64,000 nt of DNA from Gemmatimonadaceae bacterium (GCA_035253585.1 DATFBY010000110.1:47875-111874); one strand, 5' to 3'; positions 1-20,721 are shown, counted from the stretch's first letter. Numbers and translations: made by a program. Notes: a model not told the origin generated them from the letters alone.

Positions 1-139
1 GTGTGGACGTTGCGCGCTCGCATGCGCACCGCGATCCGGCGGCGGAGACACCGCTCCTTGTAGCTCGCGCATCCGAACCCGCGGTCGCGCGAGATTTTCG
101 CCGTCAGCGCGGCGAACGCCCGGTCGATCTGCGCGGCGG

Positions 140-1762
140 TCATGACGGCAGGTTGCGTACGAGCTCGAGGTTCGCACGGATGCGGTCGTTCCCGGGGTTG
201 AGCTCCAACGCACGCTCCCAGCAGGCGACCGCCTGATCCCGGTCCTGCCACTTGTAGCGGATGTTGCCGAGCTTGAAGTACACGTCGTCGCCGAGCGACG
301 GGTTCAGCTTCACTGCTCGCAGATAGGCTTCCATCGCCTCGTCGAGCTTCCCGCCGCGATAGTAGCAGTCGCCCATGTTCTTGTGCAGCTGCGGGAGCGA
401 GCGGTCCTCCTGAAGACCGCGCTCTCCCGCGTGCACTGCTGCCTGGAGATCGCCACGGCGCTCGTGAATGACTGCCAGTGTGTTGAACAGGGGCGCCGAG
501 TGCGAGTGCACGCCGATCCCCTCGTTGATCAGCGTGAGGGCGCGCTCGTGGTCCCCGCCTAACGCCGCGGCGAGTGACGCATAGTGGAACCAGGCGGCGG
601 AGGGCGGACGCTTGCCCCACAGTGCACGCGACGAGGACAGGATCGCGTTGGCGTGCTCGACGTCGCCGACCTTGAGCGACAGGATGCCTAACGAGAGCTG
701 GACCCGCGGATCGTCTCCACCGCCGCGCTGCACCGCCTCCTCGTACGCCGCGCGCGCCTCGCCGTACCGCTGCGTACGCTCCAATGCGAAGCCAAGATTA
801 TGAAAGACGGCGGCGCGCGCTCCCTGCTGCGCGGCGGCTTGCTGGAACAGCCGCACGGCCTCTTCCCAATGGGCCGAGCGCATGGCGACGAGACCGAGGT
901 AAAACCGCGCCTGGATGTCGTGCTCGCGCAGGTCGATCACGCGGCGGAACTCGCGCGTCGCTTCCTCGAACATCCCCGTCTTGTAGAACGCCATGCCGAG
1001 GTTGCGGTGCTCTTCGACCCGCGCCTCCTTCACGACGTCCTCTTGCGGGCGCGACTTGCCAACGCGATGGAGGAAGCCGGCGGTCACCAGACCGTAGATC
1101 GCCTTGCCCACCTCGAACTCGCCCAGGCCGGACGCATCGATGAGCTGGGTCACGTCACGGTCGCCGTCGATCAGTGGAACGAGCTGCTCCTGCTCCGGCG
1201 TGAGCTTGGCGTCGCTCGCCCCGAGGCGCGCGCGGTCGAGATCGAAGATGATGTCGAAGCTGGGCAGCTTCTTCTCGATGAGCCCCCACTCGTCCACCCG
1301 ACGCGCTCCCTCCAGGAGCAGCGTCTCGGGGTTGATCGACACCAACAGGTCGCGCTCGTCAGGCATCATGTCGGCCTCGAACGAGAACGTTCCCTGCGTC
1401 CAGGTGAAGAGGTAATAGACCGCTTCCTCGATCTGCATCCGGATGTAGCGGTGCAGCTCCTCACGGGTGAGGATCTTCTTTTCCATCAGGATCTCGCCAA
1501 TGCGCTTGTCGCGCTGGCGTGATTGCACCTCGATGGCGAGGTCGAGCTCGCGGCCGGTGATCACCCCGTGCTTCACCAGCATGTCGCCCAAGCGATCGCG
1601 CCGATTCACGATCGACGCGTACGAGATCCGGCCGCGGTCGAAGTACACATAGCCGAAGTTCGAGCGGTCGGTGACGCTCAGACATCCCGTCTTCTGCCCC
1701 ATGGCCAACAGCTGGAGCACGTCGGGCAGACTGGCTTCGCGGAGACTGCCTTTGATTGCCAT
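140..1762 (-). CDS. DUF4388-like N-terminal domain + TPR-repeat protein (last gene of the che/mglA array)
   Basis: The N-terminus MAIKGSLREASLPDVLQLL…GKTGCLSV… matches the DUF4388/PATAN-like pattern. The C-terminal half has multiple TPR-like repeats. The ATG at 1762 overlaps the TAA stop of the upstream gene (TAATG). Confidence 0.6.
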   Translation of the reverse strand: MAIKGSLREASLPDVLQLLAMGQKTGCLSVTDRSNFGYVYFDRGRISYASIVNRRDRLGDMLVKHGVITGRELDLAIEVQSRQRDKRIGEILMEKKILTREELHRYIRMQIEEAVYYLFTWTQGTFSFEADMMPDERDLLVSINPETLLLEGARRVDEWGLIEKKLPSFDIIFDLDRARLGASDAKLTPEQEQLVPLIDGDRDVTQLIDASGLGEFEVGKAIYGLVTAGFLHRVGKSRPQEDVVKEARVEEHRNLGMAFYKTGMFEEATREFRRVIDLREHDIQARFYLGLVAMRSAHWEEAVRLFQQAAAQQGARAAVFHNLGFALERTQRYGEARAAYEEAVQRGGGDDPRVQLSLGILSLKVGDVEHANAILSSSRALWGKRPPSAAWFHYASLAAALGGDHERALTLINEGIGVHSHSAPLFNTLAVIHERRGDLQAAVHAGERGLQEDRSLPQLHKNMGDCYYRGGKLDEAMEAYLRAVKLNPSLGDDVYFKLGNIRYKWQDRDQAVACWERALELNPGNDRIRANLELVRNLPS

Positions 1763-3906
1763 TAGCGGAGATCCTCGATCGCGCGGCCGGCCACGTCCTG
1801 CCACTCCCAGAGGATTTTCTCGTCGGAGATGAAGAGCGGATCACCCTTGCGTGCCGCCACCAGACCTTCGGCCGCCGTGCTCGGCGTCACGCCTTCGATC
1901 TCGCGGCGGGCGAGGCCGAGCGTCAAAGGCCGCGATTGCTGCACAGCCACCGTGACCAGGCGCTGAACCATCGCCCGGATCGACGGCGCATCGAACGTCG
2001 ACGTGTCCGCGAGATAGCTGACCAGTTGCGCGTCCGCGCGAACGCCGGCGGCGTCGAGATAACGTGCGTAAAGCTTCTCGCGCAGCATCCGATCCGCCGG
2101 TTGCAGCTCCACAACCAGTCCACCCTCGAAGCGCGACCGCAGCCGCTCGGCAAGATTGGTGAGCGCCTTGGGCTCGCGGTCGCTCGACAGAATGATCTGC
2201 TTTCCCTGATCGAAGACGGCGTTGAAGACGTGGAAGAGCTCTTCCTGCGTACGCTCCGTGCCGTCACACACCTGCACGTTGTCGAGCAGCAGCGCATCTA
2301 CGCCGCGATACCGCGCGCGGAATCGCTCGATGGATCCCTGCTGGATCGCGGTGATCAAATCATTGGCAAACTCGCGGACGTCGATCACGGCGACGCGCGC
2401 GGCGCCCCCGCTCAACGACGCCAGCTCGTTGCCGATGGCGTGCAGCAGATGCGTCTTGCCGGTCCCGGCCGGCCCGTGCAAGAAGAGCGGGTTGTATCGC
2501 TTCCCCGGCTCCTCGATGACCGCGTCCGAGGCGTGCACCGCGAACTGATTGGCGGCGCTCACTTCGTACGTCGCACGCGTGAACTGCGGATCCGGCGCCG
2601 GCGGCGGCTCCAGTCCATTGATGAGGTTCTCGACAACCTCTCTCGCTTCATCGATGCGCTCGGGATCGAAGAAGAGCTCGCTCGACGCCGTGACCGGATC
2701 GACCTTCCGCGCCTCAGCGCCGAGCTCCTGGAGCTGATCGATCTTGCGTTGGAACCCGGCGAGCAGCTGATCGACACCGGGGTCACTCGGAAGCTCCAGT
2801 GCCCGCTCGAGCTCGGTGGTCTTGAATCCAAGCTCCATCCAGAACGTGACCGCCTCGCCGATGCGCATCCGCCACGGCTCGATGTTTTGCGCGACGGCCG
2901 ATGCCAGGTCGGAGACGAAGCTGTCGAACTCCTCCGTGATCGGGATGATCTCGATCTCATCGGTCTCGATCGCAAACTCGTTATGCCGAGCCGTCGTGAC
3001 CGGCGGACTCGTCGGCGGCTTTGCCCCACCGTTGCCGTGTGCCGTGCCGGTCGGCGGCGGCGCACCGACGGTCGGCGGCGATGCCGGTACGCTCGGCGGC
3101 GTCCCGACAGGCATCGGTCCATGACCGACGATCGCGGCGGTAGCCGCGGACGCGGCACGCGCGATCGCGGGCAACGAGGCCGGCGTCGGCGTGTGACGGG
3201 CGCCGAGCACGGCGATCACCTGCTCGGCGCGAATCGGCTCGTCGGTGATTGCCTGATGCGCGATCATGCGATTCAGTGCGCCCTGCAATTCGCGCACGTT
3301 CGTGTATTCGAGCTTGGCCAGCGATTCGATCACGCCCTCGCCGAACGTCACGCCGCGCTCCTCGCACTTCTTCCGGAGAATGGCCACGCGCGTCTCGTAG
3401 TCAGGCAGCCCGATGTCGACGATGAGACCGCCTGACAAGCGCGTGATCAAACGTTCGTCCAGATCGGCGATCTCGGCCGGAGGCCGATCGCTCGTGAGCA
3501 CGATCTGCTTCCCGCTCCGCTGGAGCACATTGAACAGCCGCATGAGCTCGTTCTGCGTCTCGCGGCGACCGGCGATGAACTGCACGTCGTCGAGGAGCAG
3601 CATGTCGACCGTGTAGTACCGCTCCTTGAACGTGTCCATGCGCCCGGCGGACACCGCTTCATGCAGGCCGTCCACGAACTCGTCGAGCGAGGTGAACATC
3701 ACGTGCAGATCGTGCTGCTGCTGCTTGGCGAGGTTGCCGATCGCCAGCATGAGGTGCGTCTTCCCGAGCCCCGAGCTGCTGTACATGAAGAGCGGGTTGT
3801 ACGCCGAGCCCGGCGACTGCGCCACCGCGCGCGCGGCCGCGACCGCCAAGCGATTGGCGGCACCCACCACGTAGTTCTCGAAGCGGAAGCGTGGATCGAT
3901 GTTCAC
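1762..3906 (-). CDS. Tandem double DnaA-type AAA+ ATPase protein; no DnaA domain I/II or domain IV recognisable
   Basis: Two successive DnaA domain-III-like modules are present. The first reads FENYVVGAANRLAVAAA…YNPLFMYSSSGLGKTHLMLAIGN…LLLDDVQF. The second reads ANQFAVHASDA…YNPLFLHGPAGTGKTHLLHAIGN…LLLDNVQV. No HTTV-type DNA-binding motif is present at the C-terminus. Confidence 0.65.
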   Translation of the reverse strand: MNIDPRFRFENYVVGAANRLAVAAARAVAQSPGSAYNPLFMYSSSGLGKTHLMLAIGNLAKQQQHDLHVMFTSLDEFVDGLHEAVSAGRMDTFKERYYTVDMLLLDDVQFIAGRRETQNELMRLFNVLQRSGKQIVLTSDRPPAEIADLDERLITRLSGGLIVDIGLPDYETRVAILRKKCEERGVTFGEGVIESLAKLEYTNVRELQGALNRMIAHQAITDEPIRAEQVIAVLGARHTPTPASLPAIARAASAATAAIVGHGPMPVGTPPSVPASPPTVGAPPPTGTAHGNGGAKPPTSPPVTTARHNEFAIETDEIEIIPITEEFDSFVSDLASAVAQNIEPWRMRIGEAVTFWMELGFKTTELERALELPSDPGVDQLLAGFQRKIDQLQELGAEARKVDPVTASSELFFDPERIDEAREVVENLINGLEPPPAPDPQFTRATYEVSAANQFAVHASDAVIEEPGKRYNPLFLHGPAGTGKTHLLHAIGNELASLSGGAARVAVIDVREFANDLITAIQQGSIERFRARYRGVDALLLDNVQVCDGTERTQEELFHVFNAVFDQGKQIILSSDREPKALTNLAERLRSRFEGGLVVELQPADRMLREKLYARYLDAAGVRADAQLVSYLADTSTFDAPSIRAMVQRLVTVAVQQSRPLTLGLARREIEGVTPSTAAEGLVAARKGDPLFISDEKILWEWQDVAGRAIEDLR

Positions 3907-3907
3907 G

Positions 3908-4540
3908 TCAGCGCGCGCCTCCGACCGCCATGCTCCGTGCTCCTGGCGCGCTCTGCGCGCTCAGCTTTCGAAGTACCAGTTCCGAGATGCCGCGCAGCGT
4001 CTCGAACACGCCGCGCCCACGCAGCGCGTCGGCGGTGAACGAAGGCACCTCACGGAAATTCAATGCGTCCTCCAGCTCTCCGACGCTCAGCGTCAGCTCG
4101 CGCGGGAGATCCTGCTTGTTGTATTGGAGGACGATCGGCATCGTGCGCACGTCCACTCCCTGCTCCGCGAGATTCGCGTGGAGATCCTGCATGCTCTCGA
4201 TGTTCTCCTCGAGCTGGCGCGATTGGCTGTCGGCCACGAATACCACGCCGTCGGCGCCTTGCAGCACGAGTCGACGCGTCGCCTGGTAGTAGACCTGCCC
4301 CGGGACCGTATACAACTGGAAGCGTGTGCTGAATCCCGATATCGACCCGAGATCGAGCGGGAGAAAATCGAAGAAGAGCGTGCGGTCCGTCTGGGTTGCC
4401 AGCGAGACCATCTTCCCTTTCCGGTCCTGCGGCACCTGCTCGTAAATGTAATGTAGGTTCGTCGTCTTCCCCGACCTCCCAGGGCCGTAGTAGACGATCT
4501 TACAGGTGATCTCGCGGGTCGCGTAGTTGACGAGAGACAC
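3908..4540 (-). CDS. mglA: MglA-like Ras-superfamily small GTPase
   Basis: Diagnostic MglA motifs are present: [40 protein letters not shown] and [12 protein letters not shown] start at 4540 lies 5 nt after the upstream stop. The ORF-track N-terminal extension was rejected. Confidence 0.8.
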
Positions 4541-4545
4541 TGGGC

Positions 4546-5076
4546 TCAGGCGGTTGGAGGCAGTAGCTCTTCGCTGACGCGTGACGACGGAACGGGCTCC
4601 GGTCCAAAGAGCGCCGCCAGACTTTGCTGCAGATCGTGCTCGAACTCGTCGCTCGCACCGAGAGACAGCTCTTCCGGCATCGTTGCGGGCGGCGGAGCGG
4701 CAGCCGCCAGCTGCCGCGCCAGCTCCCGAAAGTAGAACAGCACCAGTCCCGCCGAGCTTTCCGCACCGAACACGGTGAGGAACACCAGCGCGCCGCGCGG
4801 AGTGATCGTCTCCCCCAGAAAAAGCCGGCGATCGTTGTCGGCGTGAAAGAGCCGCGTGAACGGGCGACCATCCAGCTGCCGCCCCAGATGCGCCGCCGAC
4901 GCGTGGATCGCCGACGCCAGCGCACACGCCGACATCACGTCCACAGGGCTGGTGAAGCCGTACTGCGCCAGCACCTGGCCCGTCGGATGCAACAGCAGCG
5001 CGAAGGTGACTCGCGCCTCGTCCACGAACTGTCGAACGGGCGCTTCCACCCACGCCTCCGCCGCCGTCGTCCTCAC
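4546..5076 (-). CDS. Roadblock/LC7 (MglB-like) domain protein with a C-terminal tail
   Basis: The Roadblock-like core reads [16 protein letters not shown]…[27 protein letters not shown]. The GTG start overlaps the upstream stop (GTGA at 5073-5076). Confidence 0.55.
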
Positions 5077-5420
5077 GAAAGCGTCTCCGCCGCACGCAGC
5101 ATCGCCGCGCGCAGCAGCCCAATGTTCACACGCGCCTCGGCCACGGCGATGATCACCAGATCGTGGCGACCCGCCGCGCACACGTGTCCATCCGCTGCCT
5201 CCAACCGCAGGAAGCCGACGGAGCCGAGCCCGGCCGCCTGCGCCGAAAGCCGTGCTTTTCGGAAGAGCGACGCGGCCAATGCCGCGACGGCCTCGCCATG
5301 TACGCCGACCTGTAGCGTCGAGTCGATGATCAGTCCGTCGCTCTCGCCGACGACCATGCATCCGAGCACGGCGCGCTGGCGGGTGAGCGGCGCGAGCAGA
5401 TCGCGAAATAGCGTGGTCAT
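5073..5420 (-). CDS. Roadblock/LC7 domain protein (MglB-like)
   Basis: A 115-aa Roadblock fold starts [12 protein letters not shown]…[17 protein letters not shown]…. Its ATG overlaps the upstream stop (ATGA at 5417-5420). Confidence 0.6.
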
Positions 5421-6229
5421 TGCGGCGCCTCCAGCCACTGACGCGCGCGCTCCACGCATCGATCGAGTGTCCGCCTGACGAGTCCGAGTGGAATCGTCTT
5501 GGCCGCGGCCACGAGCACGAGCGACTCGCCCGCGCCGGGAGCCATCGCGACAGTCGCAACCTCGGTCTCGAACACGACGCACGACCACGCCCCGAGCTCG
5601 AGGTGTTTCGTCGCGCGCTGCGCTTCTTCACGCACGCCGCAGAGCTCGGCGCCCACTTCCTGCGCCACATCGGCCTCGTCAGGCGACAGATATGCTCCCG
5701 CCGTGACCAGTCCACTGGCATCGATCAGCAGCGCGGTTTGCTCGCCATCGCCCAGAATGTCCGCGAAGAGATGCCGTGCTTCTTCGCCAGGCGACATCGC
5801 GCGCGCGCCGTCGGTAGCCGCCGAGCTGGTCAGCATCCGCCGCACCATGGCCAGCGCGGTGGCGATCGTCGGATCCTCGCCATCGTGCGACGCCGCGGCG
5901 GTCAAATAGCGCTCGGCGTCGGATAGCCGTCCCTGTTTGAAGCAAACGTAGCCGAGTCCCTTGTGCGCGCCGACGTGCGTGGGCGACAGCGTGATCACCA
6001 TGTCCCATTCATCGAAGGCCCGATCGAGCTCTTGCTCGTCGACCCAGATGCGCGCGAGAAGGTCATGCGCTTCCGGATTGTGCGGGTGCCGCTCGAGTCC
6101 GCGCGTGGCGACGCGCAGAGCGAGATCGAGCTCGCCGCGCTTTCGCAGCGCCTCGCCCAGGGCGAGGAAAGCCAGGCTGGCGGGATCGCGAGCCAGCTCG
6201 TCGCTCAGCCGGCTGATCTCGTCAGACAT
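5417..6229 (-). CDS. TPR N-terminal + Roadblock/LC7-like C-terminal protein
   Basis: TPR-like helices are at the N-terminus. A Roadblock-like domain (…TALLIDASGLVTAGA…SCVVFETEVATVAMAPG…) is at the C-terminus. It overlaps the upstream gene by 8 nt. Confidence 0.55.
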   Translation of the reverse strand: MSDEISRLSDELARDPASLAFLALGEALRKRGELDLALRVATRGLERHPHNPEAHDLLARIWVDEQELDRAFDEWDMVITLSPTHVGAHKGLGYVCFKQGRLSDAERYLTAAASHDGEDPTIATALAMVRRMLTSSAATDGARAMSPGEEARHLFADILGDGEQTALLIDASGLVTAGAYLSPDEADVAQEVGAELCGVREEAQRATKHLELGAWSCVVFETEVATVAMAPGAGESLVLVAAAKTIPLGLVRRTLDRCVERARQWLEAPQ

Positions 6230-7373
6230 GCAGATGCTCCGTCAAATAAGTACGAAGACGCGAAGCGGTTTCCATCGCCGCGCGCACTCGCTCGGCGTCG
6301 GCCGCGTCCGGTGACATGCGGAGATAGCGGTCCCAACACGCTTCGGCTTCGGCGAAATCGCCCCGTGCCGCGGCGCAGAATCCGAGCTCCAGATGCACCG
6401 CGGCATGCGCGGCATCGAGCTGGAGCGCCCGCTTGAGCTCCGCGACGGCCTCATCGCGGAGTCCTCGCTGAAGGAGCGCGCGCGCAAGAAGCAGGTGTGC
6501 GTCGGCCGAATGCGGATCTGCTTCCACCGCCGCGCGGGCCGATGCCGTCGCGGCGTCGAGCTCGCCTCGTCGAAGCGAGATGCCAGCCTGCTCGAGGAGA
6601 GTGGCGGCGGCTTCCGACGGCGCGACGACCGGCATCTTCTGACCATTGCCGCGATCGCGGAGCTCGATGACGCCGGTGGTCGCCAACCCATACACGACCT
6701 TGCCGACATCGAACTCGCTACGGGCGAGAGCGGTGGCGATACCACGCAGATCACGCGTGCCGTCGATCTCGGTCAGAACCTCCCACTCGCTAGGCAAGAG
6801 ATCGAGCAACGTCGGGTGATCATCCTCCACATCGGCCAGCACCGGCACCATTCCGACGTGGCGGACCTTGCCTTCGATTCGCGACCACTCGTCGATGCGC
6901 CGCGCGCCTTCCATCAGCAGCGACTCGGTCGAGATGCGGATCGGTGCCTCGGAGTGGGAGCCGAGCGCGCCACCTTCCTCGAAGGAGAAATGCCCCTCGT
7001 GCCAGCTCATGAGCTCGAAGATCACTTCTTCGACCTGGAAGCGAACCTGTCGCTCGACTTCCTTCGGCGTGACCGCGCCCATGGCCACGAGAATCTCCCC
7101 GAGCCGACGCGGATCGCGATCGCGCGACTGGAGCTCGCGGGCCCTCACCAGATCGTTCTCCGTGATCTTACCGGCGCGCAGGAGCAGCCCGCCTAACGGC
7201 TGCGGGTTGTTTTTCATCGCCGCATGCACGACCGACCCGCGCTCGAAGTACACGGTGCCCTGGTTGTCCCTCATCGTCGACGTGACGGTGAGCGTTCCGG
7301 TCTTCCGGCTCAGGTCGAGCAGTTGGAAGACATCGTGGATTCCGAGCTCGCGAAGCGGTCCTTCGATCGACAT
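6222..7373 (-). CDS. DUF4388-like N-terminal domain + TPR protein (paralog of 140..1762)
   Basis: The N-terminus MSIEGPLRELGIHDVFQLLDLSRKTGTLTV and the central HEGHFSFEE…EGARRIDEW both parallel the first gene. The C-terminus has TPR-like repeats. Confidence 0.6.
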   Translation of the reverse strand: MSIEGPLRELGIHDVFQLLDLSRKTGTLTVTSTMRDNQGTVYFERGSVVHAAMKNNPQPLGGLLLRAGKITENDLVRARELQSRDRDPRRLGEILVAMGAVTPKEVERQVRFQVEEVIFELMSWHEGHFSFEEGGALGSHSEAPIRISTESLLMEGARRIDEWSRIEGKVRHVGMVPVLADVEDDHPTLLDLLPSEWEVLTEIDGTRDLRGIATALARSEFDVGKVVYGLATTGVIELRDRGNGQKMPVVAPSEAAATLLEQAGISLRRGELDAATASARAAVEADPHSADAHLLLARALLQRGLRDEAVAELKRALQLDAAHAAVHLELGFCAAARGDFAEAEACWDRYLRMSPDAADAERVRAAMETASRLRTYLTEHLHV

Positions 7374-7376
7374 GCC

Positions 7377-10088
7377 TCAGACCTCCACGCGTGGGCGGAA
7401 GATCCGCAGAAGATCGGCGGCGGTCTTCGCGTCGCGCCGCGCGCGGTGAGCGAACTCGCCATCGGGCTCCAGCTCCACGACTTCCTGCCAACGCGCGATC
7501 GCGTCGCGGTAGCGATGCCGCTCGAAGAACAGCACGCCGGCCAGATACAGCGCGCCCGTGTGCTGCGGATCGAAGCGGAGGATGCGCTGCACCGAGGTGG
7601 CGGCATCGTCGTGCCGCTCGAGCTCGATCAGCGTCTCGGTGAGCGCCACCAGGGCCTTGAGGTGATACGGATCCTGCTTGAGCAGCGAGATGAGCGGATC
7701 GAGCGCGTCGCGCGTGCGGGTGAGCTTTCGGCGCACGCTGGCGAGCTCGAGAATCGCCTCGGCGTACGTCGGTACCGCCTCCAGTGCCGCCAGCAGCGCG
7801 GTCTCCGCCTCATTGTACTGCCCCACGGTGCCTAACAAGCGGGCGAGCTCGTAGTGGACCACGGCGAAATGACGGTCGAGGTCGAGCGCGTTACGATAGG
7901 CCGAAATCGCGCCGCGAATGTCGCCGGCCGCGCGCGCGACGTCGCCCATCTGCTTGAGGACGTCGGCGCGCGCCGGCTCGAGCCGCCTGGCCCGCTCGAG
8001 CAGCTCGAGGGCACCGCGAGGGTCGCCGGCCTCGGCCCTCGCCGATGCGACCAGCAGCAGCGTCTCGACGCCTGACGAGTCGGTTTCCAGAAGCTGCTCG
8101 GCGACCGGCCGCGCTTCCTCGGCACGGCCAAGGGCGAGTAGGGCCCGCGTCTCGCCGGCCAGCGCGCGGGGCGCGATGCCGTTCATCGTTCGCGCGGTGC
8201 GATAGCGCTCCAGCGCCTCGCCATAGAGTCCCTGCCGCGCGAACGCATCGCCGAGTAGGGTGAGTCCTTCCACACGGTCAGCGCCGCGCGAAAGTGCGCG
8301 GCTGACCTCGGTGGCTGCACGCTCGAACAGGCCCTTCGACAGATAGTCCCGAGCGAGCGAGTATGGGCCAGCATCCGATGGTGGCGCGGGCTGCTGTGCC
8401 GCTGCGCTCTGCTTGAGCTGATCGAACAGATTGTCCAGAGAGCGAGGATCGAACGAAAACGCATCGACCTGCGCTTCGACACGTCGCTCCCCGGTCATGT
8501 CTGGTACGATGGCGAGCTCGAGATCCTCGTACTCGACATCGAGCGCGAGCTGAAAGCGCTGCTGCACGTAGTACGGGTCGAGCTCCAGGGCGCGCTTGGT
8601 CGCGCGGAGTGCACCCTCGAAGTCGCCGAGGTTGGAAAGGGTGAAGCTCAGGTTGTAGTGCGCTTCGGCGTAGTCGGCCTTCGCTTGGATGGCGCGTCCG
8701 AAGGCGTTGCGCGCGTCCTCGTGCTTCTTGAGCTCCACCAGCACCAGACCGACACCGTTCCACGCCACGGGATGCTCGCCCTCGATCGCCAGCGCCTGAC
8801 GATACGCCTCGAGCGCCAAGTGCAGGCGCTTCCCCCGAAACAAGAGCAACGCCAGGTTGAGCCACGCCTTGATGAAAGTGCCGTGCGCTGCGATGGCGGC
8901 GCGGAACTCGTCGATCGCGTCCTCCGTCTCGCCTGCGTGGTAGAGCGCGACGCCGAGGTTGTTGCGCGCGATGGCGTAGTCGTCGTCGAGCGCCAGCGCC
9001 TTCTTGTAGCTGTCGACCGCGTCGGCGATACGGCCCGTCTGGTGCATCGCGACCCCGAGCTCGCACCAGAGCTTCGGGCTCCCGCTCTGCTTCTGCAGCA
9101 CGCGCTGGTAGAGGTCGATCGCCTGCCCCGCGTCGCGCGTGAGCAGGTGCACCTCTGCCATCGCCTGCATCACGAGCGCGTGATCTTCGCCACGCTCGAG
9201 CGCCAGCTTGTACTCGCGCAGCGCCTCGCTGTAGTAGCCCTTCTGCCGGAATGCGAGACCGAGGTTGTAGTGCGCCAGCTGCTTGTCGTCGGCGACCTCG
9301 AGGCGCGCCGAGCGGCGCTCCTGGCGCTCGGGCAGCATCTCCTGGAAGCGCGAGCTGTTGTAGCGGTCGAGCGAGAGATTCGTCTGAGCGCGAGACAGCG
9401 AGGGGTTGAGCTCGATGGCGCGTCGCGTCGCTACCCGCGCTTCTTCGTGCCGTCCAGCATCGCCTAACACGAAGCCCATCAGGTAGTGGGCATCGGCGTT
9501 GTCCGGATTCAGCTGGATCGACTTCTTCAGTGCCGCGAGCGCGTCATCGTTGAGCCCGCGATTGTACAGCACTTCGCCGATGTAGAAGTGTAAGAGTGAG
9601 CTCTCCGGCTCCAGCTTCTTGGCGCGCTCGAACCAGCGTTGCGCGCGATCGAGATCGCCGCTGGCCTTCTCGGCGAGTCCGAGCTGCACGATCGACGCGA
9701 CGTCCTTGGCGTGGTACTTCAGGAGCTCCGTGAATTCGGCGATCGCTTCCTTGCTGTCGCCCAGCGTCGCATATGCCCGCCCCAGCTCCCAACGCGCCGC
9801 GCGGTTCGAGGGATCGAGTCGAAGACGCTCCTTGAGCTCGGTAACCCGGCGCTCGTAGTAACCCGTGTTGAAGTACGCAATCTCCAGATTGCGCTGTGCC
9901 ACTTCCATCTTCGGGTCGATCTCGAGGGCGCGGGTGAACGCGCCCACCGCTTCCTCGTACAGCCCCTTGTTGTAATAGAGGACGCCGAGGTTGTTGTGCG
10001 CCCCCGCGTCCGACGAATCGATCCGCCGGGCGAACGAGCGCAAGATCGAGCGATCGCGCTCCGAAGTTGGGGACGCCTGCATGATCAC
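7377..10088 (-). CDS. Large TPR-repeat protein (903 aa)
   Basis: Dozens of canonical 34-aa TPR units (…AHYNLG…AL.LDP…) run along the entire length. A GTG start follows 1 nt after the cheC stop. Confidence 0.7.
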   Translation of the reverse strand: MIMQASPTSERDRSILRSFARRIDSSDAGAHNNLGVLYYNKGLYEEAVGAFTRALEIDPKMEVAQRNLEIAYFNTGYYERRVTELKERLRLDPSNRAARWELGRAYATLGDSKEAIAEFTELLKYHAKDVASIVQLGLAEKASGDLDRAQRWFERAKKLEPESSLLHFYIGEVLYNRGLNDDALAALKKSIQLNPDNADAHYLMGFVLGDAGRHEEARVATRRAIELNPSLSRAQTNLSLDRYNSSRFQEMLPERQERRSARLEVADDKQLAHYNLGLAFRQKGYYSEALREYKLALERGEDHALVMQAMAEVHLLTRDAGQAIDLYQRVLQKQSGSPKLWCELGVAMHQTGRIADAVDSYKKALALDDDYAIARNNLGVALYHAGETEDAIDEFRAAIAAHGTFIKAWLNLALLLFRGKRLHLALEAYRQALAIEGEHPVAWNGVGLVLVELKKHEDARNAFGRAIQAKADYAEAHYNLSFTLSNLGDFEGALRATKRALELDPYYVQQRFQLALDVEYEDLELAIVPDMTGERRVEAQVDAFSFDPRSLDNLFDQLKQSAAAQQPAPPSDAGPYSLARDYLSKGLFERAATEVSRALSRGADRVEGLTLLGDAFARQGLYGEALERYRTARTMNGIAPRALAGETRALLALGRAEEARPVAEQLLETDSSGVETLLLVASARAEAGDPRGALELLERARRLEPARADVLKQMGDVARAAGDIRGAISAYRNALDLDRHFAVVHYELARLLGTVGQYNEAETALLAALEAVPTYAEAILELASVRRKLTRTRDALDPLISLLKQDPYHLKALVALTETLIELERHDDAATSVQRILRFDPQHTGALYLAGVLFFERHRYRDAIARWQEVVELEPDGEFAHRARRDAKTAADLLRIFRPRVEV

Positions 10089-10089
10089 G

Positions 10090-10716
10090 TCAGCTCACCC
10101 GCACCGCCCGCAGGATGGCTTGCAGCGAGTCTAGGTCGGGCAGCAGCAGAAAGAATCCGCGCAGCGCCTCGCCCATGTCGCTGAGGAAGAACTCGGTCTC
10201 TACCGCGAACACGTAATCGCGATCGGTGCCGAACTGCAGGTAGGCGGTGGTGAGCACCGCCGACGACATGTCGATCGCCAGGCTGGGCGGCGACGGCAGC
10301 AGCATCAGCCCGAGGAATTCGCTCAGCGCGTTCATGTATGCGCCGCTGAGGATGTTTCCGGCCTCTTTGATCGCCGACTCCTCCAATGGGCCGAATTCGG
10401 CTGGCTCCCGTACTTCGCGTCGCAGCATCAGCGCCGCCATGCGTGCGGCCGTGGCCCGCGGAAAGACGAGCAGCGTACGCCCGGTGAGATCACCGCGCAT
10501 CTGCATCAGCACCGCGGCGATCGGCTCCTCGTTGTCTTGAATTTGTGACGGTACGTCTTCGAGCTGCGCGATGGTGATCGTCGGCACGCTGATCATGATC
10601 GTGCTCCCGGTCATTTGCGACATGGCGGTGGCCGCGTGACCGGCGCCGATGTTCGCCACCTCTTTCAACGCATCGAGCTGCAGCTCTTTCAGCTCCAGAA
10701 GCTCCTTCATTGCCAC
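10090..10716 (-). CDS. cheC: CheC/CheX-family chemotaxis phosphatase
   Basis: Two CheC-type repeats are present: EVANIGAGHAATAMSQMTG and EAGNILSGAYMNALSEF. Confidence 0.7.
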   Translation of the reverse strand: MAMKELLELKELQLDALKEVANIGAGHAATAMSQMTGSTIMISVPTITIAQLEDVPSQIQDNEEPIAAVLMQMRGDLTGRTLLVFPRATAARMAALMLRREVREPAEFGPLEESAIKEAGNILSGAYMNALSEFLGLMLLPSPPSLAIDMSSAVLTTAYLQFGTDRDYVFAVETEFFLSDMGEALRGFFLLLPDLDSLQAILRAVRVS

Positions 10717-10720
10717 TCCT

Positions 10721-12307
10721 TTAGAGGAGGCTACCGACGTCGACGATCAATGCGGGCGCGCCATCCGAGAGGATGGTGGCGCCGCTGAACACCCCAACTG
10801 CGTCCTGCACGGCGTCGAACGGCTTCACAACGATGTCCTGCTGTCCAGTGAGCTCATCGACGAGCAATCCCGCTCGCCGCTCGCCCATCTCGAGAACGAT
10901 GACTTGCGCTTTCGCACGCGGCTCCTCGGGGAGCCGTATGATGTTCCTGAAGCGGATCAGGGGAAGCACTTCGTCGCGCATCACCAGTACATCGTGTCCC
11001 TTCACGCGACGGAGCGCCTCGGGCTGGAGCTCGGCCGTCTCGCTCACGTGCGTGAGCGGCACCGCGTACATCTCCCGGTCCACGCGCGCCAAGAGCGCGC
11101 GCACGATCGCCAGCGTCACGGGCAGGCGCACGGTGACCGTCGTCCCCTGTCCCGGCGTACTCCGAATCTCGACGCCGCCGCCTAACGAGCGAACGCGCGT
11201 GTACACGGCGTCGACCCCCACGCCTCGACCCGAGAGATCGGTGACCATTTCGGCCGTGGAGAATCCCGGACGGGCGATGATTCGAATGAGCTCCTCCTCG
11301 CCGACCTCGCGCGTCGGATCGTCGATCAATCCGAGCTCGGCCGCTTTGCGGAGGACGCGGTGGCGGTCGATGCCGCGGCCGTCATCGGACACGCGGATCG
11401 TTACCGACGAGCGCTCGCGTGCCGCGCTCAGCACCAGCCGGCCGCTGCGCGGCTTTCCGGCGGCCTCACGCTCGTCAGGCAGCTCGATACCGTGATCGAT
11501 GGCGTTTCGAAGCAGGTGCACGATCGGATCGCCGATCTCATCGAGCATCGAGCGGTCGAGCTCGATCTCCTTTCCCTCGAGCGCCAGGTCGATCTCCTTT
11601 CCGAGGGCGCGAGCTCCATCACGCACCAGACGCGGGAATCGGTCGAAGATCTGCGCCACCGGTACCATGCGCGCCGTCATGATCTCGTCCTGGAGCTCGG
11701 CGATGAGCTTGCCCGCCTGCGCAACCGTTTCGTCGAGCGCCGGGTCGCTGGTGCCGCTCGTCAGGCTCTGCAATCGGCCGCGCGCGATCACGAGCTCACC
11801 CACGAGATTCATGAGCGAGTCGAGGCGTTTGAGCTCGATGCGCGCGTGCCGCGGCACCTGCGGCGCTTCCATCGGGCGCGGCACGACAGTCGTCGCGCGG
11901 CGCGCGGCGCGCGTTCCAGCCTTGCCCGATTTCGCGCCGGCCACCGACTTCAGGCGCTCGATGAGACGCGTGACGTCGCCCGCCTCCTCGCCTTTGACGA
12001 CGGCTTCGATCGCCAGTTCGAGCACGTCGGCGGCGCGGAAAAGAAGATCCATCACCTCCGGCGTCGCGGGCTGCTCGCCGCGGCGCATGCGCTCGAGCAG
12101 CGTCTCCAACTCGTGCGTCAGCTCGGTGACGTTGGTGTACCCCATCGTCGCGCTCATGCCCTTGATGGTGTGCACCGAACGGAAGATGGCCGCCACCGGC
12201 TCGCTCGCGTCCGGCGTGCGCTCCAGCTCGAGCAGCTGCGCGTTGATCGCCGAGAGATGCTCGCGGCTCTCGGTGAGGAAGAGGTCGGCGTATTTGCTCA
12301 GGTCCAT
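10721..12307 (-). CDS. cheA: Chemotaxis histidine kinase CheA
   Basis: The N-terminal Hpt domain (H in HTIKG), the HATPase_c domain (DDGRGID…GRGVGVD) and the C-terminal CheW-like domain are all recognisable. Confidence 0.85.
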   Translation of the reverse strand: MDLSKYADLFLTESREHLSAINAQLLELERTPDASEPVAAIFRSVHTIKGMSATMGYTNVTELTHELETLLERMRRGEQPATPEVMDLLFRAADVLELAIEAVVKGEEAGDVTRLIERLKSVAGAKSGKAGTRAARRATTVVPRPMEAPQVPRHARIELKRLDSLMNLVGELVIARGRLQSLTSGTSDPALDETVAQAGKLIAELQDEIMTARMVPVAQIFDRFPRLVRDGARALGKEIDLALEGKEIELDRSMLDEIGDPIVHLLRNAIDHGIELPDEREAAGKPRSGRLVLSAARERSSVTIRVSDDGRGIDRHRVLRKAAELGLIDDPTREVGEEELIRIIARPGFSTAEMVTDLSGRGVGVDAVYTRVRSLGGGVEIRSTPGQGTTVTVRLPVTLAIVRALLARVDREMYAVPLTHVSETAELQPEALRRVKGHDVLVMRDEVLPLIRFRNIIRLPEEPRAKAQVIVLEMGERRAGLLVDELTGQQDIVVKPFDAVQDAVGVFSGATILSDGAPALIVDVGSLL

Positions 12308-12317
12308 GGGATTCCTT

Positions 12318-12406
12318 CGAGATTCGAGATTCGAGATTCGTGACGGCGGATATGGAGCTCGTTAGGTGTGCCGTTACGAATCTCGAATCTCGAATCTCGA
12401 ATCTCG
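12318..12406. repeat. Inverted tandem-heptamer hairpin element, (CGAGATT)3…(CGAATCT)4, intergenic between cheA and cheY
   Basis: Read directly. The two arms are exact inverse complements. The spacer contains ctcgttaggtg, a variant of the octamer. Confidence 0.85.
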
Positions 12407-12769
12407 CTATCCGAGCACCCGCTGCACCGCTTCCAGCACGCGGCTCGGCTGGAAGGGCTTCACCACGAAATCCTTCGCGCCCGCCTGAATCGCTTCGACC
12501 ACCAGCGCCTGCTGGCCCATGGCCGAGCACATCAGGATCTTCGCGTTCGGATCGACCTTCGTGATCTCGCGGACCGCGTCGATCCCGCCCATGTCGGGCA
12601 TCACGATGTCCATCGTCACCAGATCGGGACGCAGTTGGTTGTACTTCTCGATCGCCTGAACGCCGGTCTCCGCTTCGCCGATCACCTCGAATCCCGACTG
12701 CGTCAGGATGTCGGCGATCATTGTGCGCATGAAGATGGCGTCGTCGCAGACCAGCACGGTGTGACTCAA
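12407..12769 (-). CDS. cheY: CheY-like single-domain response regulator
   Basis: The receiver fold carries VLVCDDAIFMR, the phospho-acceptor D in LVTMDIVMPDMGG, and KPF. Confidence 0.85.
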   Translation of the reverse strand: MSHTVLVCDDAIFMRTMIADILTQSGFEVIGEAETGVQAIEKYNQLRPDLVTMDIVMPDMGGIDAVREITKVDPNAKILMCSAMGQQALVVEAIQAGAKDFVVKPFQPSRVLEAVQRVLG

Positions 12770-12782
12770 CGGTTCCTCCCGA

Positions 12783-13250
12783 TCAAAGCAGGACGTGCGA
12801 AACGATTTCTTCGAGGTTCAATACCATCACCACCGCGCCGCCTACGCGCGCCGCGGCCTGTACACTCTCCGTCCCGGGCGCCGGTGGCTCGAGCTCCGAC
12901 TCCGCGACGCGCACCACATCGAGCACTTCATCGACCGCCATCCCCACCACCCGCGATCCACGCTCGATCAGCACGATCGAGCCCTCGGCGCGCGACGACG
13001 ACTCGCCGTGCAGGCGCATGCCGAGGTCGACCACCGTGATGATCGTTCCGCGCACGTTGATCAGTCCGGGCACGAACGACGGAGCGCCCGGCACGCGCGT
13101 GCCCGCGCGATGCGGAATGATCTCCCGCACCACACTGAGCTGGATCGCGTACGGCCGCTCGCCCAGCCGGAACATCACCAGCTGGCGCGTCGGAACGTCA
13201 GAGATCGTTTCGGTAGAAGCCAAGGAAGTCCAACGGATCGGGGTGCTCAA
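12783..13250 (-). CDS. cheW: CheW coupling protein
   Basis: CheW-like domain: QLVMFRLGERPYAIQLSVVREII…LINVRGTIITVVDL. The exact start is uncertain, and the ORF overlaps the rluD 3' end. Confidence 0.75.
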   Translation of the reverse strand: MSTPIRWTSLASTETISDVPTRQLVMFRLGERPYAIQLSVVREIIPHRAGTRVPGAPSFVPGLINVRGTIITVVDLGMRLHGESSSRAEGSIVLIERGSRVVGMAVDEVLDVVRVAESELEPPAPGTESVQAAARVGGAVVMVLNLEEIVSHVLL

Positions 13251-14226
13251 CGAGCTCCCGCATCCCCGACGCGGCGACGAGCGACCGCACTAGGTCCGCT
13301 GGCAACGGCGAGCGAAGGTCGACTGCTACCCCCGTCGCAGGATGCGGGAACACCATCCAGGCGGCGTGGAGGAAATGCCGACGGGGTGGAAGCTCGAGCA
13401 GGCGCCGCCCGCCTCCACCGCCGTACGTGTCGTCACCGACCACCGGATGCCCGATCGACGCGAGATGAACGCGAATCTGATGCGTGCGTCCGGTGTGCAG
13501 GTGCGCACGCAAAAGGTCAGTCGCATCGAAGCGAGCGAGCCGGATGAAATCCGTCTTCGCCGCCCTTCCGCTACTGACGATTGCCATGCGCTTTCGGTCT
13601 CGCGGATCGCGTCCAAGTGGGCGGTCTACCGTCACTTTGTCGGTGTTCAGATGTCCCCACGAAAGCGCCGCGTACCGACGTGTGACGCGCCGCGCCGCGA
13701 TGGCGGCTCCGAGGCTTCGGTGAGCCCGGTCGGTCTTCGCCACCAGAAGGAGCCCTGAGGTGTCCTTGTCGAGCCGGTGGACGATCCCCTCGCGGTCCTC
13801 CCCGCCGGATGCGGAAAGCTCCCCTCCGCGCCCTTTGAGAGCGTTTACAAGGGTTCCGGACCAATTTCCGGGGGCTGGATGGACGACCATGCCGGCGGGC
13901 TTGTCGACGACGAGCAGGTCGTCGTCCTCGAACATGATCGACAACGGAATCTGCTCGGCCTCGATCTCGCGCACCGTCGGCGGTGGGATTACGACGCGGA
14001 TCCGCTCGCCGGAGCGTGGCCTATAGCTCGAGCGCTCCCGCCTCCCGTTCACGGTGACGTTGCCATTGGCGATGAGTGTCGCCGCTTGCGTGCGCGACAG
14101 GTCCAGCTGGCGGGCGATAAACAAATCGAGGCGGACATCGCTATCCGCCTCGATCTCGAGCTCGTGTATCGTGGAGCGCGCGTCGCTGTCGCTCAGCCCG
14201 CCGTCGCGCATCGGCGGCTCACGCAC
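13198..14226 (-). CDS. rluD: RluA/RluD-family 23S rRNA pseudouridine synthase
   Basis: The catalytic motif HRLDKDTSGLLLVAKT is present, and an S4-like N-terminus is also present. Confidence 0.8.
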   Translation of the reverse strand: MREPPMRDGGLSDSDARSTIHELEIEADSDVRLDLFIARQLDLSRTQAATLIANGNVTVNGRRERSSYRPRSGERIRVVIPPPTVREIEAEQIPLSIMFEDDDLLVVDKPAGMVVHPAPGNWSGTLVNALKGRGGELSASGGEDREGIVHRLDKDTSGLLLVAKTDRAHRSLGAAIAARRVTRRYAALSWGHLNTDKVTVDRPLGRDPRDRKRMAIVSSGRAAKTDFIRLARFDATDLLRAHLHTGRTHQIRVHLASIGHPVVGDDTYGGGGGRRLLELPPRRHFLHAAWMVFPHPATGVAVDLRSPLPADLVRSLVAASGMRELVEHPDPLDFLGFYRNDL

Positions 14227-14752
14227 CCTCGCTCGCCTTCACCGCCGCGGGTGCCGCACGCGCCGCCTCCTCGCGCTCCTCGCCCCACAGCGACCAGGCC
14301 AGCAGAATGGCGCCGAAGCTCACCGCGATGTCGGCCACGTTGAACGTCGGCCACCGAAGGTCTCCGAACCCCATGTCGAGAAAATCCACGACGCCGAGCG
14401 GCGAGCGAATGCGGTCGATGAGATTTCCGACCGCGCCGGCGCACACGAGTCCGAGCGCCGTGATGCGGAGCGTGTCGTTTTCCCGAGCAGCGCGATAGAG
14501 TCGGCCGAGAATCACCAGCGCAACGATCGTCAGCAGCAGGAAGATCCACCGCGAATACGGTCCGAGGTGGAGACCAAAGGCCGCGCCGCGGTTGTACACC
14601 AGCGTTAGGCGGACCCACTCGCCGATGACCTCGCGAGGCACGCGCATGGGGCGCAGTGCATCGACGGCGATCAGCTTCGTGATCACATCGAGGGTGACGA
14701 TCCCCCCGATCAGCGACCAGAACAGCAGTGCCTTACGACTGCTTCTTTCCAT
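14219..14752 (-). CDS. lspA: Lipoprotein signal peptidase II
   Basis: Four-TM pattern. The conserved NRGAAFG and FNVADIAVSFG motifs are present. Confidence 0.8.
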   Translation of the reverse strand: MERSSRKALLFWSLIGGIVTLDVITKLIAVDALRPMRVPREVIGEWVRLTLVYNRGAAFGLHLGPYSRWIFLLLTIVALVILGRLYRAARENDTLRITALGLVCAGAVGNLIDRIRSPLGVVDFLDMGFGDLRWPTFNVADIAVSFGAILLAWSLWGEEREEAARAAPAAVKASEGA

Positions 14753-15155
14753 CTTCCTCGCGCTGTTTGCAGCTGATGCACAGGCGTGCGTGGGGAAGTG
14801 CGTCGAGCCGGTCGAAGTCGATGTCCTGACCGCAATTGTGGCACTTGCCGAACGTCTCTGGTGACCGGTAGAGGCGGCGCAATGCCTCGTCGATGTGCCA
14901 GAGGAAACGACCCTCTTGGCTGGCGAAAAGAAACGCCTTCTCGCGCTCCATCGCGTCGGTGCCCTGGTCAGCCATATGGAAGGAATACGAGCTGAGATCG
15001 CCGTCCGAGGCCTGCGGCGTCGCGTTGAACGTCTCGCTGTACTGTCCCAGCTCCTTGAGCACGCGCCGGCGCTCTTCGAGTAGTCGTTTCTCGAAGTGCG
15101 CGAGCATTTTCTTGTTCATGGGCTTGGGCTTCTTGGCGCTCGCTGAAGACGGCAT
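14733..15155 (-). CDS. DksA/TraR-family C4 zinc-finger protein
   Basis: CHNCGQDI…CISCKQ zinc-finger at the C-terminus. Confidence 0.7.
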   Translation of the reverse strand: MPSSASAKKPKPMNKKMLAHFEKRLLEERRRVLKELGQYSETFNATPQASDGDLSSYSFHMADQGTDAMEREKAFLFASQEGRFLWHIDEALRRLYRSPETFGKCHNCGQDIDFDRLDALPHARLCISCKQREEDGKKQS

Positions 15156-15160
15156 GCTGT

Positions 15161-19428: not shown

Positions 19429-20033
19429 TCCTTCAGCGCCTCCAGCCAGGCGGGAGTCTTGAGCACGTTACGGGGCCCGGAGTCGTGCTCGTCGCGCGCC
19501 GCGTCGCGGGGCACCTGACGCGAATGATCGGGCGCCGCCGGCTGAGCCGGCACCCCACCCGGCGGCGTCGCGCCCGCCTCGGCTGCTTGAAGCTCCGCCA
19601 GCTGCCGCTCGATCATCGACCGCAGCTGAGTGAGGAACGCCCGGCGCGACTTGTCGAGCTGCGTGAGCTCGACCTCGATCTTGCGCGCTTCGCCGCGCGC
19701 GGCCTCGATGATGCGCTCGCCCTCGGCGCGGGCCTCGCGCAAAATGAGCTGCGCTTCGCGCTCGGCTTGCTCGCGCGTCTCGGCCCGCAGCTGCTGCGCC
19801 GAGATGAGCGCGTCGTTCAGCGCCTTGTCACGCTCGCGAAAGGCGCGGAGCTGTTCGTGAAAATTCTTTGCCTTTCCCTCGAGGTCCATGTGCGCTCGCG
19901 TCAGCCGCTCGAGCTCCTCGGCCACGCGCTCGCGGAATTCATCGACCATGGCGCGATCGTAACCGCGCAGCGCGCTGCCGAAATCCCATCGGCGCACGTC
20001 GATTGGTGTCAGCTTGAAGCCTTCGTCCGTCAT
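19425..20033 (-). CDS. divIVA: DivIVA-domain protein
   Basis: The N-terminus [26 protein letters not shown] is the DivIVA signature. The C-terminus is coiled-coil. Confidence 0.75.
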
Positions 20034-20710: not shown

Positions 20711-20721
20711 AAGCTGGTAAT

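Follow-up and report, generated by a model that had tools for sequence, protein, structure and literature searches.

A chemosensory operon-like array of Gemmatimonadales that encloses MglA polarity genes and a double DnaA-type ATPase

Can a chemosensory pathway and an MglA polarity switch be encoded as a single unit, and what part could a DnaA-like ATPase take in it? The question is raised by a 64,000-nucleotide stretch of the genome of a Gemmatimonadaceae soil bacterium (GCA_035253585.1, DATFBY010000110.1:47875-111874; hereafter the window, ~65% G+C), in which che genes, a gene for an MglA-family Ras-like GTPase, genes for Roadblock, TPR and PATAN (DUF4388) proteins and a gene for a tandem DnaA-type AAA+ protein lie packed together on the minus strand. 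The original prediction saw here a stripped-down, self-contained Che core wired to MglA with an unusual AAA+ output. We find that a Che pathway and the MglA/MglB/Roadblock/PATAN/TPR set are indeed packed in one operon-like array, that the Che core is a complete one in its adaptation enzymes, and that the ATPase belongs primarily to an older two-gene module.

The single minus-strand array predicted for positions 140-13250 is borne out by a plot of G+C at third codon positions (GC3), which gives an unambiguous reading frame from 140 to beyond 18,500, and by the lists of open reading frames (ORFs), which agree with it. Pfam, NCBIfam and PDB sequence searches of the translated ORFs place 12 genes in this interval (Table 1), one fewer than the 13 announced, and each of the expected CheW, Hpt, Roadblock_LC7, DUF4388 and Bac_DnaA domains was recovered, some of the Roadblock matches being weak when taken singly. 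Junctions range from an 8-nucleotide (nt) overlap to a 13-nt gap, a wider range than the 0-8 nt first given, plus a single gap of 99 nt. The first gene, cheW, has an alternative TTG start at 13250 that would lengthen its product to 155 amino acids (aa), and its start overlaps the end of rluD. Further upstream on the same strand follow lspA, a dksA/traR zinc-finger gene, ileS, a nucleoside phosphorylase gene (PNP), divIVA and yggS.

The seemingly minimal Che core proved to be a product of the window edge. The ATG of the truncated cheR shares the sequence ATGA with the stop codon of the PATAN-TPR b gene, and the translation of the fragment (MTAAQIDRAFAALTAKISRDRGF...) is the start of a 272-aa CheR_N/CheR gene in a metagenome contig (L001) that was found by exact-protein look-up and is 99.8% identical to window positions 1-13906. 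Past the edge this contig runs on as cheR-cheD-cheB-cheW-cheW-TPR296, every overlap being 4-14 nt, and after a gap of 293 nt it carries a gene for an MA-clan peptidase. The window holds the upstream two-thirds of an 18-gene operon-like array, conserved in Gemmatimonadales, that extends from cheW to the gene for the 296-aa TPR protein and has junctions of -14 to +13 nt, a repeat insertion excepted; the MglA block sits in the middle of the che operon. Because cheR, cheD, cheB, two further cheW genes and the TPR gene follow directly downstream, the Che core is not stripped-down, and with CheR, CheD and CheB it is complete in adaptation enzymes. The earlier statement that the array has no methyl-accepting chemotaxis protein (MCP), CheR or CheB stands for the MCP only, the absence of the other two being an artefact of the edge: a tblastn search with the conserved Tsr signalling domain gave no MCP match in either the window or 15 loci, and the gene tables of three further loci (18 related loci in total) contain no MCP family. 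As no receptor is encoded nearby in the window or the related loci, the system cannot be called self-contained.

The neighbourhood conservation that had been proposed as a check is extensive. Thirteen loci, L001 included, show the order rluD, cheW-cheY-cheA-cheC-TPR~900-PATANa-TPR/Roadblock-Roadblock-MglB-MglA-doubleDnaA-PATANb-cheR-cheD-cheB-(cheW-cheW)-TPR~296-peptidase. The 12 further Gemmatimonadales loci among them (L001, L003-L012 and L016) come from three sequence subgroups of the ATPase and have protein identities of 32-86%; two of them (L003 and L008) are short contigs that cover part of the order only, and L012 is missing the two downstream cheW genes. A sequence-specific pattern scan of contigs with the ATPase gave eight loci, and the wider sample comes from a representative search, two homologue searches and contig look-ups. 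Identity differs widely by protein, at 86-88% for CheY, 71-85% for MglA, 32-74% for the ATPase and ~41% for the first CheW. The array always stands just downstream of the block yggS-divIVA-(PNP)-ileS-(dksA/traR)-(lspA)-rluD (18553-22938 in the window), and in L011, L012 and L016 the cluster is followed within ~4 kb by rsmH (in L012 also by ftsI), the start of a division and cell-wall cluster. Co-transcription of the array is plausible, and the short junctions, the shared order and the lack of any excess of promoter-like or terminator-like sites speak for one expression unit. A scan of positions 1-16000 found promoter-like and terminator-like sites as frequent as in shuffled sequence and is thus uninformative on internal promoters.

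What kind of chemosensory pathway is this? CheA, CheW, CheY, CheR and CheB together with CheC and CheD, all components of an F1-type system, are present, and the pathway is probably F1-like. CheY aligns with Thermotoga maritima CheY (1tmy) at E 6e-52 with ~68% identity, as counted from the printed alignment, and is nearly identical to it over the C-terminal third, which we take to be the site of the motor-binding surface. CheC matches the NCBIfam model CheC_Thtogales at 4.4e-51, under that model's cut-off. The CheA of the window has no P2 (CheY-binding) domain, whereas its orthologues of 619-649 aa in L011, L012 and L016, the three loci whose gene tables were read for this feature, have one. 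CheA has no receiver domain, so that the receivers of the array are those of CheY and CheB only. The Che core resembles the Thermotoga/Bacillus flagellar type in its CheY and in having both CheC and CheD, and not Frz. In four loci (L004, 15919-16719; L006; L007; L010) an extra gene for a 266-aa AAA_22 (ExeA/MshM-like) ATPase stands between cheB and a downstream cheW, and that cheW carries an N-terminal extension of ~120 aa.

The GTPase, predicted as MglA-like, is firmly so. It aligns with Myxococcus xanthus MglA (5ymx) at E 3.5e-68 over 180 residues and with Thermus thermophilus MglA at 7.8e-62, and it keeps the features of group 1 MglA, namely R53 (the intrinsic arginine finger), T78 (Thr in place of the DxxG Asp) and Q82 (the catalytic Gln), within the conserved stretches TDRTLFFDF and LYTVPGQ. 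Roadblock assignments that were weak for single sequences were retested with profiles built from orthologues. The profile of the 176-aa protein (seven orthologues) matches MglB chains only in the PDB (6izw from M. xanthus, 8.1e-13; 1j3w from T. thermophilus, 7.1e-10); this protein is an MglB orthologue, with a predicted GTPase-activating protein (GAP) activity. The order mglB-mglA is the same in M. xanthus. Of the other two supposedly MglB-like proteins, the one of 115 aa is a canonical Roadblock/LC7 whose profile matches 7f8f at 3.8e-9 as well as the dynein light chain roadblock and could not be aligned to the MglB-type profile, and in the TPR-Roadblock fusion the C-terminal domain is borderline when searched alone (Robl_LC7 7.1e-5, 22.9 bits against a cut-off of 23), with a clear Robl_LC7 match in its L011 orthologue.

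Both PATAN proteins combine PATAN with TPR, and neither has a Response_reg match in Pfam. PATAN-TPR b carries, in an alpha-helical insertion, a tandem MshEN-type motif at residues 57-80 and 87-110, whose half-motifs RLGDMLVKHGVITGRELDLAIEVQ and RIGEILMEKKILTREELHRYIRMQ are separated by a 6-residue spacer; the published MshEN consensus is a tandem of the 24-residue RLGxx(L/V/I)(L/V/I)xxG(L/V/I)(L/V/I)xxxxLxxxLxxQ with a spacer of ~5 residues (PMC5013675). The protein scores 45.0 bits against the NCBIfam model of this cyclic di-GMP (c-di-GMP) motif (NF053729, cut-off 38). In the second half-motif K replaces a G that is present in other lineages, and both half-motifs are kept in all orthologues checked, including those of loci without che and mgl genes. 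Thus, PATAN-TPR b is predicted to bind c-di-GMP. It is also the most conserved protein of the array outside the Che proteins and MglA (94% identity in L003, 44-65% elsewhere). PATAN-TPR a scores 40.1 bits against the same model, and here the second half-motif alone fits and the orthologues are degenerate. The large TPR protein, first given as 903 aa, is real with a length of 901 aa and occurs in every che-mgl locus at 43-60% identity.

Separated from mglA by a 1-nt gap is the gene for the double-DnaA ATPase, whose product consists of a module 1 (residues 1-235), a disordered Pro-rich linker (237-323), a helical middle domain (324-430), a module 2 (~440-670) and a C-terminal tail. Module 1 is ~40-50% identical to bacterial DnaA domain III and has all nucleotide-binding and arginine-finger motifs; none of Walker A, Walker B, sensor I, the two box VII arginines and sensor II varies across 120 homologues. 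Module 2 keeps the box VII arginines, and its P-loop Lys is retained by 108 of the 120 homologues and lost by 12; in the window protein it has DN where DD is expected, and its sensor II is not conserved among the homologues. We infer from these motifs that module 1 is catalytically competent and that module 2 is regulatory or degenerate. An AlphaFold model (predicted local distance difference test, pLDDT, 82.7) gives two confident AAA+ modules and a confident all-helical middle domain, with linker 237-323 disordered and the tail at low confidence; its inter-module geometry is unreliable (predicted template-modelling score, pTM, 0.52). The low-confidence tail still bears the conserved motif FFxDxEKxxWxWPDxxGRxIE, and neither tail nor middle domain has a Pfam match even at E<=1.

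In public databases members of this family are named 'DnaA/Hda family protein' (the NCBI name of the window's own protein) or 'chromosomal replication initiator', and the latter annotation is almost certainly wrong. Unlike DnaA and Hda, the protein contains domain III twice within a single chain, the two modules being linked by a helical domain specific to the family, and its gene invariably lies beside a PATAN-TPR gene, far from a replication context. DnaA_N and Bac_DnaA_C gave no match at E<=0.01, and PDB alignments end at the close of domain III. It is not a DnaA initiator, since domain III is present twice and domains I, II and IV are absent. An identity as Hda was likewise rejected: the match to the Hda model TIGR03420 (181 bits) is under the cut-off of 194.8, there are two modules, and we read the protein as having no clamp-binding motif of the Hda type at its N-terminus because it opens directly with the start of domain III (DPRFRFENYVVG). 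The family comprises dozens of 50%-identity clusters with full-length coverage, and all members that bear an organism name (~25) are from Gemmatimonadota. The representative library also contained giant proteins with many DnaA-domain-III-like stretches (P0178, 1876 aa; P0184, 1990 aa; and P0245, P0251 and P0264, 1248-1420 aa with 8-9 matched stretches).

Is the ATPase an output of the Che/MglA system, as had been proposed? In a further subgroup all five loci examined (L013-L015, L017 and L018) have the arrangement rluD, doubleDnaA, PATAN-TPR, Peptidase_MA_2 at the same chromosomal position, after yggS-divIVA-ileS-rluD, and none of the five carries che genes, mglA or mglB. Named members of this subgroup are assigned to Gemmatimonadales, Gemmatimonadota and Longimicrobiales (one locus record is labelled Longimicrobiales). 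The double-DnaA and PATAN-TPR b genes are always adjacent, with or without che and mgl. Since these five loci carry the pair without any Che or Mgl gene, the ATPase is primarily a partner of PATAN-TPR b in an older two-gene module and not a dedicated output of Che or MglA. On the other hand, the ATPase co-varies with the presence of che and mgl, because the fate of the module 2 P-loop differs between subgroups, being lost in 119 of 119 sequences of the che-less subgroup and kept in 228 of 240 from the che-mgl subgroups.

One che-less locus, L017, has a gene for a 138-aa Roadblock/LC7 protein (9588-10004) whose reading frame overlaps the double-DnaA start, and MglA is not encoded nearby; the protein could be matched to neither of the window's Roadblock types. 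It may be what is left of the larger cluster, or it may indicate that the ATPase itself is under the control of Roadblock proteins. In an unbootstrapped neighbour-joining tree of module 1, rooted with Bacillus subtilis DnaA and possibly subject to long-branch effects, the che-less group is nested among the che-mgl groups. This nesting and the orphan Roadblock of L017 mildly favour loss of che and mgl in the che-less group over gain in the others. Another che-less locus, L013, lies on a 4.46-Mb contig and adjoins a gas-vesicle cluster (16727-21974; GvpA-family, GvpF/L, GvpG and GvpK), which fits a lineage that relies on buoyancy.

The hairpin reported between cheA and cheY is real and spans 99 nt rather than 98. 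Its stem of ~25 bp has a folding free energy of -59.7 kcal/mol (z -7.5), and the palindromic repeat is present in at least three copies with a variable loop of ~30 nt (12308-12406, 16815-16907 and 24366-24461), the second being a 93-nt in-frame insertion in the ileS ORF (15161-18556, minus strand) and the third lying directly past the ftsH stop codon. We considered an attenuator or terminator and rejected it, as no T-run follows the hairpin, it is absent from all other loci compared, and it is one of these several copies. Because it is missing elsewhere and recurs in ileS and after ftsH, the hairpin is a strain-specific palindromic repeat insertion and not a regulatory part of the system. IleS has 1131 aa in the window; in four other Gemmatimonadota loci its length is 1049-1067 aa, and a fifth has an IleS of 1166 aa.

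Table 1. Features of the array in the window.
Feature	Coordinates	Strand	Evidence and remarks
cheR 5' end, first 47 codons	1..143	-	gene runs past window edge
PATAN(DUF4388)-TPR b, 540 aa	140..1762	-	Pfam DUF4388 1e-37 + TPR
Double DnaA-domain-III AAA+ protein, 714 aa	1762..3906	-	Bac_DnaA x2 (Pfam)
MglA-family Ras-like GTPase, 210 aa	3908..4540	-	E 3.5e-68 vs M. xanthus MglA
MglB-type Roadblock, 176 aa	4546..5076	-	directly upstream of mglA, 5-nt spacing
Canonical Roadblock/LC7, 115 aa	5073..5420	-	Pfam Robl_LC7 4.5e-7
TPR-Roadblock fusion, 270 aa	5417..6229	-	TPR matches + Robl_LC7 3e-4
PATAN(DUF4388)-TPR a, 383 aa	6222..7373	-	DUF4388 2e-35
Large TPR protein, 901 aa, ~20 repeats	7377..10082	-	TPR_2 2.8e-82 + related families
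CheC phosphatase, 206 aa	10090..10710	-	Pfam CheC 2.7e-24
CheA histidine kinase, 528 aa, P1, P3, P4, P5	10721..12307	-	Hpt, H-kinase_dim, HATPase_c and CheW domains
Inverted repeat, (GAGATTC)4 arms, ~33-nt loop	12308..12406		cheY-cheA spacer, 99 nt
CheY, 120 aa	12407..12769	-	Response_reg 8.9e-31
CheW, 146 aa	12783..13223	-	Pfam CheW 3.8e-33; gene call in L001

Among known systems, the array would, by analogy, work most like the Frz-MglA circuit. With it the array shares a pathway of the CheA/CheW/CheY type that includes CheR and CheB, a group 1 MglA whose catalytic residues are the same and an MglB-type Roadblock GAP gene just upstream, further Roadblock paralogues (MglC in Myxococcus) and a large TPR protein, which might be the counterpart of SgmX (PMC11580455). 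In Myxococcus, frz, mglBA, romR and sgmX lie at separate loci, as the original prediction had stated for Frz and MglA/MglB, and in both Myxococcus and Bdellovibrio mglA is not encoded beside its signalling partners (PMC4316618), whereas a single array holds the corresponding genes here. The array shows no FrzE-type CheA-CheY fusion, FrzZ, FrzX, FrzCD, RomR or RomX, its Che core with CheC and CheD is of the Thermotoga/Bacillus type, and it adds two PATAN-TPR proteins and the double DnaA-type ATPase. We therefore rejected membership in the Frz pathway itself, given a CheA without receiver, CheY and CheB as the only receivers, and no MCP domain.

Other comparisons are more distant. The cyanobacterial Tax and Pix chemotaxis operons also include a PATAN protein, but in the array PATAN is fused to TPR rather than to a receiver and CheY is separate, and MglA, MglB and a DnaA-like ATPase are not described for the cyanobacterial operons in the literature considered. 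With no Response_reg match in either PATAN protein, an assignment as PatA-type response regulator was rejected. The actinobacterial conservons likewise combine a histidine kinase, a Roadblock protein (CvnB) and an MglA-family GTPase (CvnD) in one conserved operon (PMC4316618; PMC13343842). However, CvnA is a membrane sensor kinase and not a CheA, CvnD is a group 2 MglA, Che adaptation enzymes, a PATAN domain and an AAA+ protein are all missing from conservons, and CvnC (DUF742) is not in the array; conservon membership was rejected, as the Pfam results for the array include neither DUF742 nor a membrane sensor kinase. Positioning NTPases are encoded inside che or flagellar operons in the cases of ParC/ParP (Vibrio), PpfA (Rhodobacter sphaeroides) and FlhF/FlhG. 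These are alike in logic only, as nucleotide switches among che genes that organise an apparatus spatially; they are NTPases of the ParA/MinD or signal recognition particle (SRP) type, with neither a Ras-like GTPase nor a DnaA-type AAA+ protein among them.

How might the parts work together? Our tentative answer, to which we give somewhat less than half of our confidence, is that an F1-like chemosensory pathway and c-di-GMP drive an MglA/MglB polarity switch that probably serves type IV pili. From the gene content, order, conservation and motifs observed, we infer the interactions, the pilus as target and the ATPase's role as follows. Receptors encoded elsewhere would control CheA and CheW, with adaptation through CheR, CheB, CheD and CheC, and CheA would phosphorylate the highly conserved single-domain CheY. 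Phosphorylated CheY, together with c-di-GMP entering through the MshEN-type motif of PATAN-TPR b, would control the switch formed by the MglA GTPase and its GAP MglB, which the two further Roadblock proteins, the two PATAN-TPR scaffolds and the 901-aa TPR protein may help to assemble. The switch would set the pole at which the motility machine, most likely a type IV pilus, is active, and the 901-aa protein could be the SgmX-like effector that directs the polar machine. The double-DnaA ATPase may serve as an ATP-dependent oligomerising switch or scaffold that sets the PATAN-TPR platform's state or position, and the che and mgl genes have perhaps been wrapped around the older ATPase/PATAN-TPR b module.

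The choice of the pilus follows from the literature on MglA and PATAN. In M. xanthus, MglA-GTP marks the leading pole and recruits SgmX, a protein with 14 TPRs, which leads to polar localisation of PilB, and experimental work on group 1 MglA concerns type IV pili, or type IV pili and gliding (PMC11580455; for Bdellovibrio, PMC3983030). In Synechocystis, PATAN serves as an output domain and binds PilB1 and PilC, its alpha-helical insertion and the N-terminus of pilus and secretion ATPases are related, and PATAN genes often neighbour those of MglA and MglB (bioRxiv 10.1101/2021.06.11.447907; for the neighbourhood also PMC4316618). PatA-type regulators of cyanobacterial chemotaxis operons have PATAN fused to a CheY-like receiver (bioRxiv 10.1101/2021.06.11.447907), and by analogy this fusion offers a Rosetta-stone argument for a coupling of CheY to PATAN in the array.

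Several points weigh against this pilus model. Pilus, gliding and flagellar genes are all absent from the 64-kb window and from every locus, and the domain annotations include no RomR-, RomX-, FrzX- or FrzZ-like protein. Since the ATPase/PATAN-TPR pair persists in five loci without che and mgl, its core function need not concern motility. In addition, the MglA of the array may be a specialised paralogue, because Gemmatimonas aurantiaca seems to have another mglB-mglA pair, of the canonical kind: Table S2 of PMC4316618 lists two group 1 MglA genes for strain T-27, GAU_1115 as 'MglB>MglA>' and GAU_1409 as 'PATAN>MglA>-PATAN>'. In the latter region the unnamed gene that separates MglA from the second PATAN is plausibly that of the double-DnaA ATPase. 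Finally, the Che core resembles the Thermotoga/Bacillus flagellar type, and given the ~68% identity of CheY to its T. maritima counterpart and the presence of CheC and CheD, the primary output could be the flagellar motor.

This last point leads to an alternative that we consider unlikely while taking it seriously, in which the array is a flagellar F1-type chemotaxis operon and the embedded MglA, MglB, Roadblock, PATAN, TPR and DnaA-like genes form a spatial organiser by which the chemoreceptor array or the flagellum is positioned at a pole, by analogy with ParC/ParP, PpfA and FlhF/FlhG. The absence of an MCP gene is normal for flagellar chemotaxis operons, and G. aurantiaca has been reported to be flagellated. 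The near-identity of the CheY C-terminal third to that of T. maritima (E 6e-52 overall), the company of CheC and CheD with CheR and CheB, the three CheW genes and the ExeA-like AAA_22 gene between cheB and cheW in four loci all point in this direction; against it, neither the window nor any locus holds flagellar genes, no ATPase of the ParA/MinD type is present, and the literature found on MglA, PATAN and MshEN draws no link to flagella. The reading with which we began, of a minimal self-contained core of CheW, CheY, CheA and CheC that is hard-wired to MglA and whose dedicated output is the double-DnaA protein, is contradicted and very improbable: the adjacency of the genes within the window speaks for it, and the downstream cheR, cheD, cheB and two cheW genes, the lack of a receptor gene nearby and the occurrence of the ATPase without Che or MglA in other lineages speak against it.

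The che-less loci suggest a different alternative, in which a phylum-wide module of the double-DnaA protein, PATAN-TPR b and the MA-clan peptidase would organise the cell cycle, division or the pole independently of chemotaxis; such a module might be a sensor or titrator of DnaA or of replication status, or take its cue from the nucleoid, its position in the array reflecting history at a fixed chromosomal site and not a common pathway. Both this proposal and its suggested mode of action seem to us doubtful, at about the level of the flagellar alternative. It would account for the five loci in which the three genes follow rluD without che or mgl, and for a site between divIVA-ileS-lspA-rluD and, in several loci, the division cluster genes rsmH-ftsI. 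It fits less well with the tight junction to mglA (from a 1-nt gap to a 4-nt overlap), which persists down to ~32% ATPase identity, as does the tight junction to cheR (a 4-nt overlap in some loci, short gaps in others), or with the P-loop of module 2, kept by most members of the che-mgl groups and lost throughout the che-less group; moreover, the ATPase has neither the DNA-binding domain IV nor a clamp-binding motif. A further reading is conceivable, and we judge it improbable: a hitherto unrecognised, phylum-wide cell-organisation module of the DnaA-derived AAA+ protein and the c-di-GMP-binding PATAN-TPR scaffold, near divIVA and the division cluster, would read replication, cell-cycle or nucleoid status and, in motile lineages, be wired between the chemosensory pathway and MglA so that the state of the cell cycle gates direction switching. 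If true, this would be the first recruitment of a replication-initiator ATPase fold for polarity signalling.

Elsewhere in the window, genes at 40437-44253 form a probable ergothioneine set, with GCS2 (EgtA-like), the histidine methyltransferase Methyltransf_33 (EgtD-like) and DinB_2 plus FGE-sulfatase (EgtB-like). The stretches 33474-36385 and 52060-55087 contain genes of the glyoxylate shunt (isocitrate lyase and malate synthase), with the gene for AceK, an isocitrate dehydrogenase kinase/phosphatase, next to that for isocitrate dehydrogenase.

The association of MglA/MglB with PATAN is already known (PMC4316618). An mglA inside a che operon, the tandem DnaA-type ATPase and its pairing with a PATAN-TPR protein bearing a c-di-GMP motif are undescribed in the searchable literature, as are a repurposed initiator fold in, and a c-di-GMP input into, a polarity module. 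A large family now annotated as 'chromosomal replication initiator protein DnaA' is instead a tandem domain-III ATPase that is always paired with such a PATAN-TPR protein, and this pairing suggests both a repurposed initiator fold and a c-di-GMP input to the polarity module. The phylum has cultured members, among them G. aurantiaca T-27, whose GAU_1409 neighbourhood is listed in Table S2 of PMC4316618. The link between sensing and polarity, which is indirect in Myxococcus, would here be written into the genome as one tight array, and while the route from Che proteins to MglA is still debated in Myxococcus, the conserved array offers a compact candidate set of direct partners.

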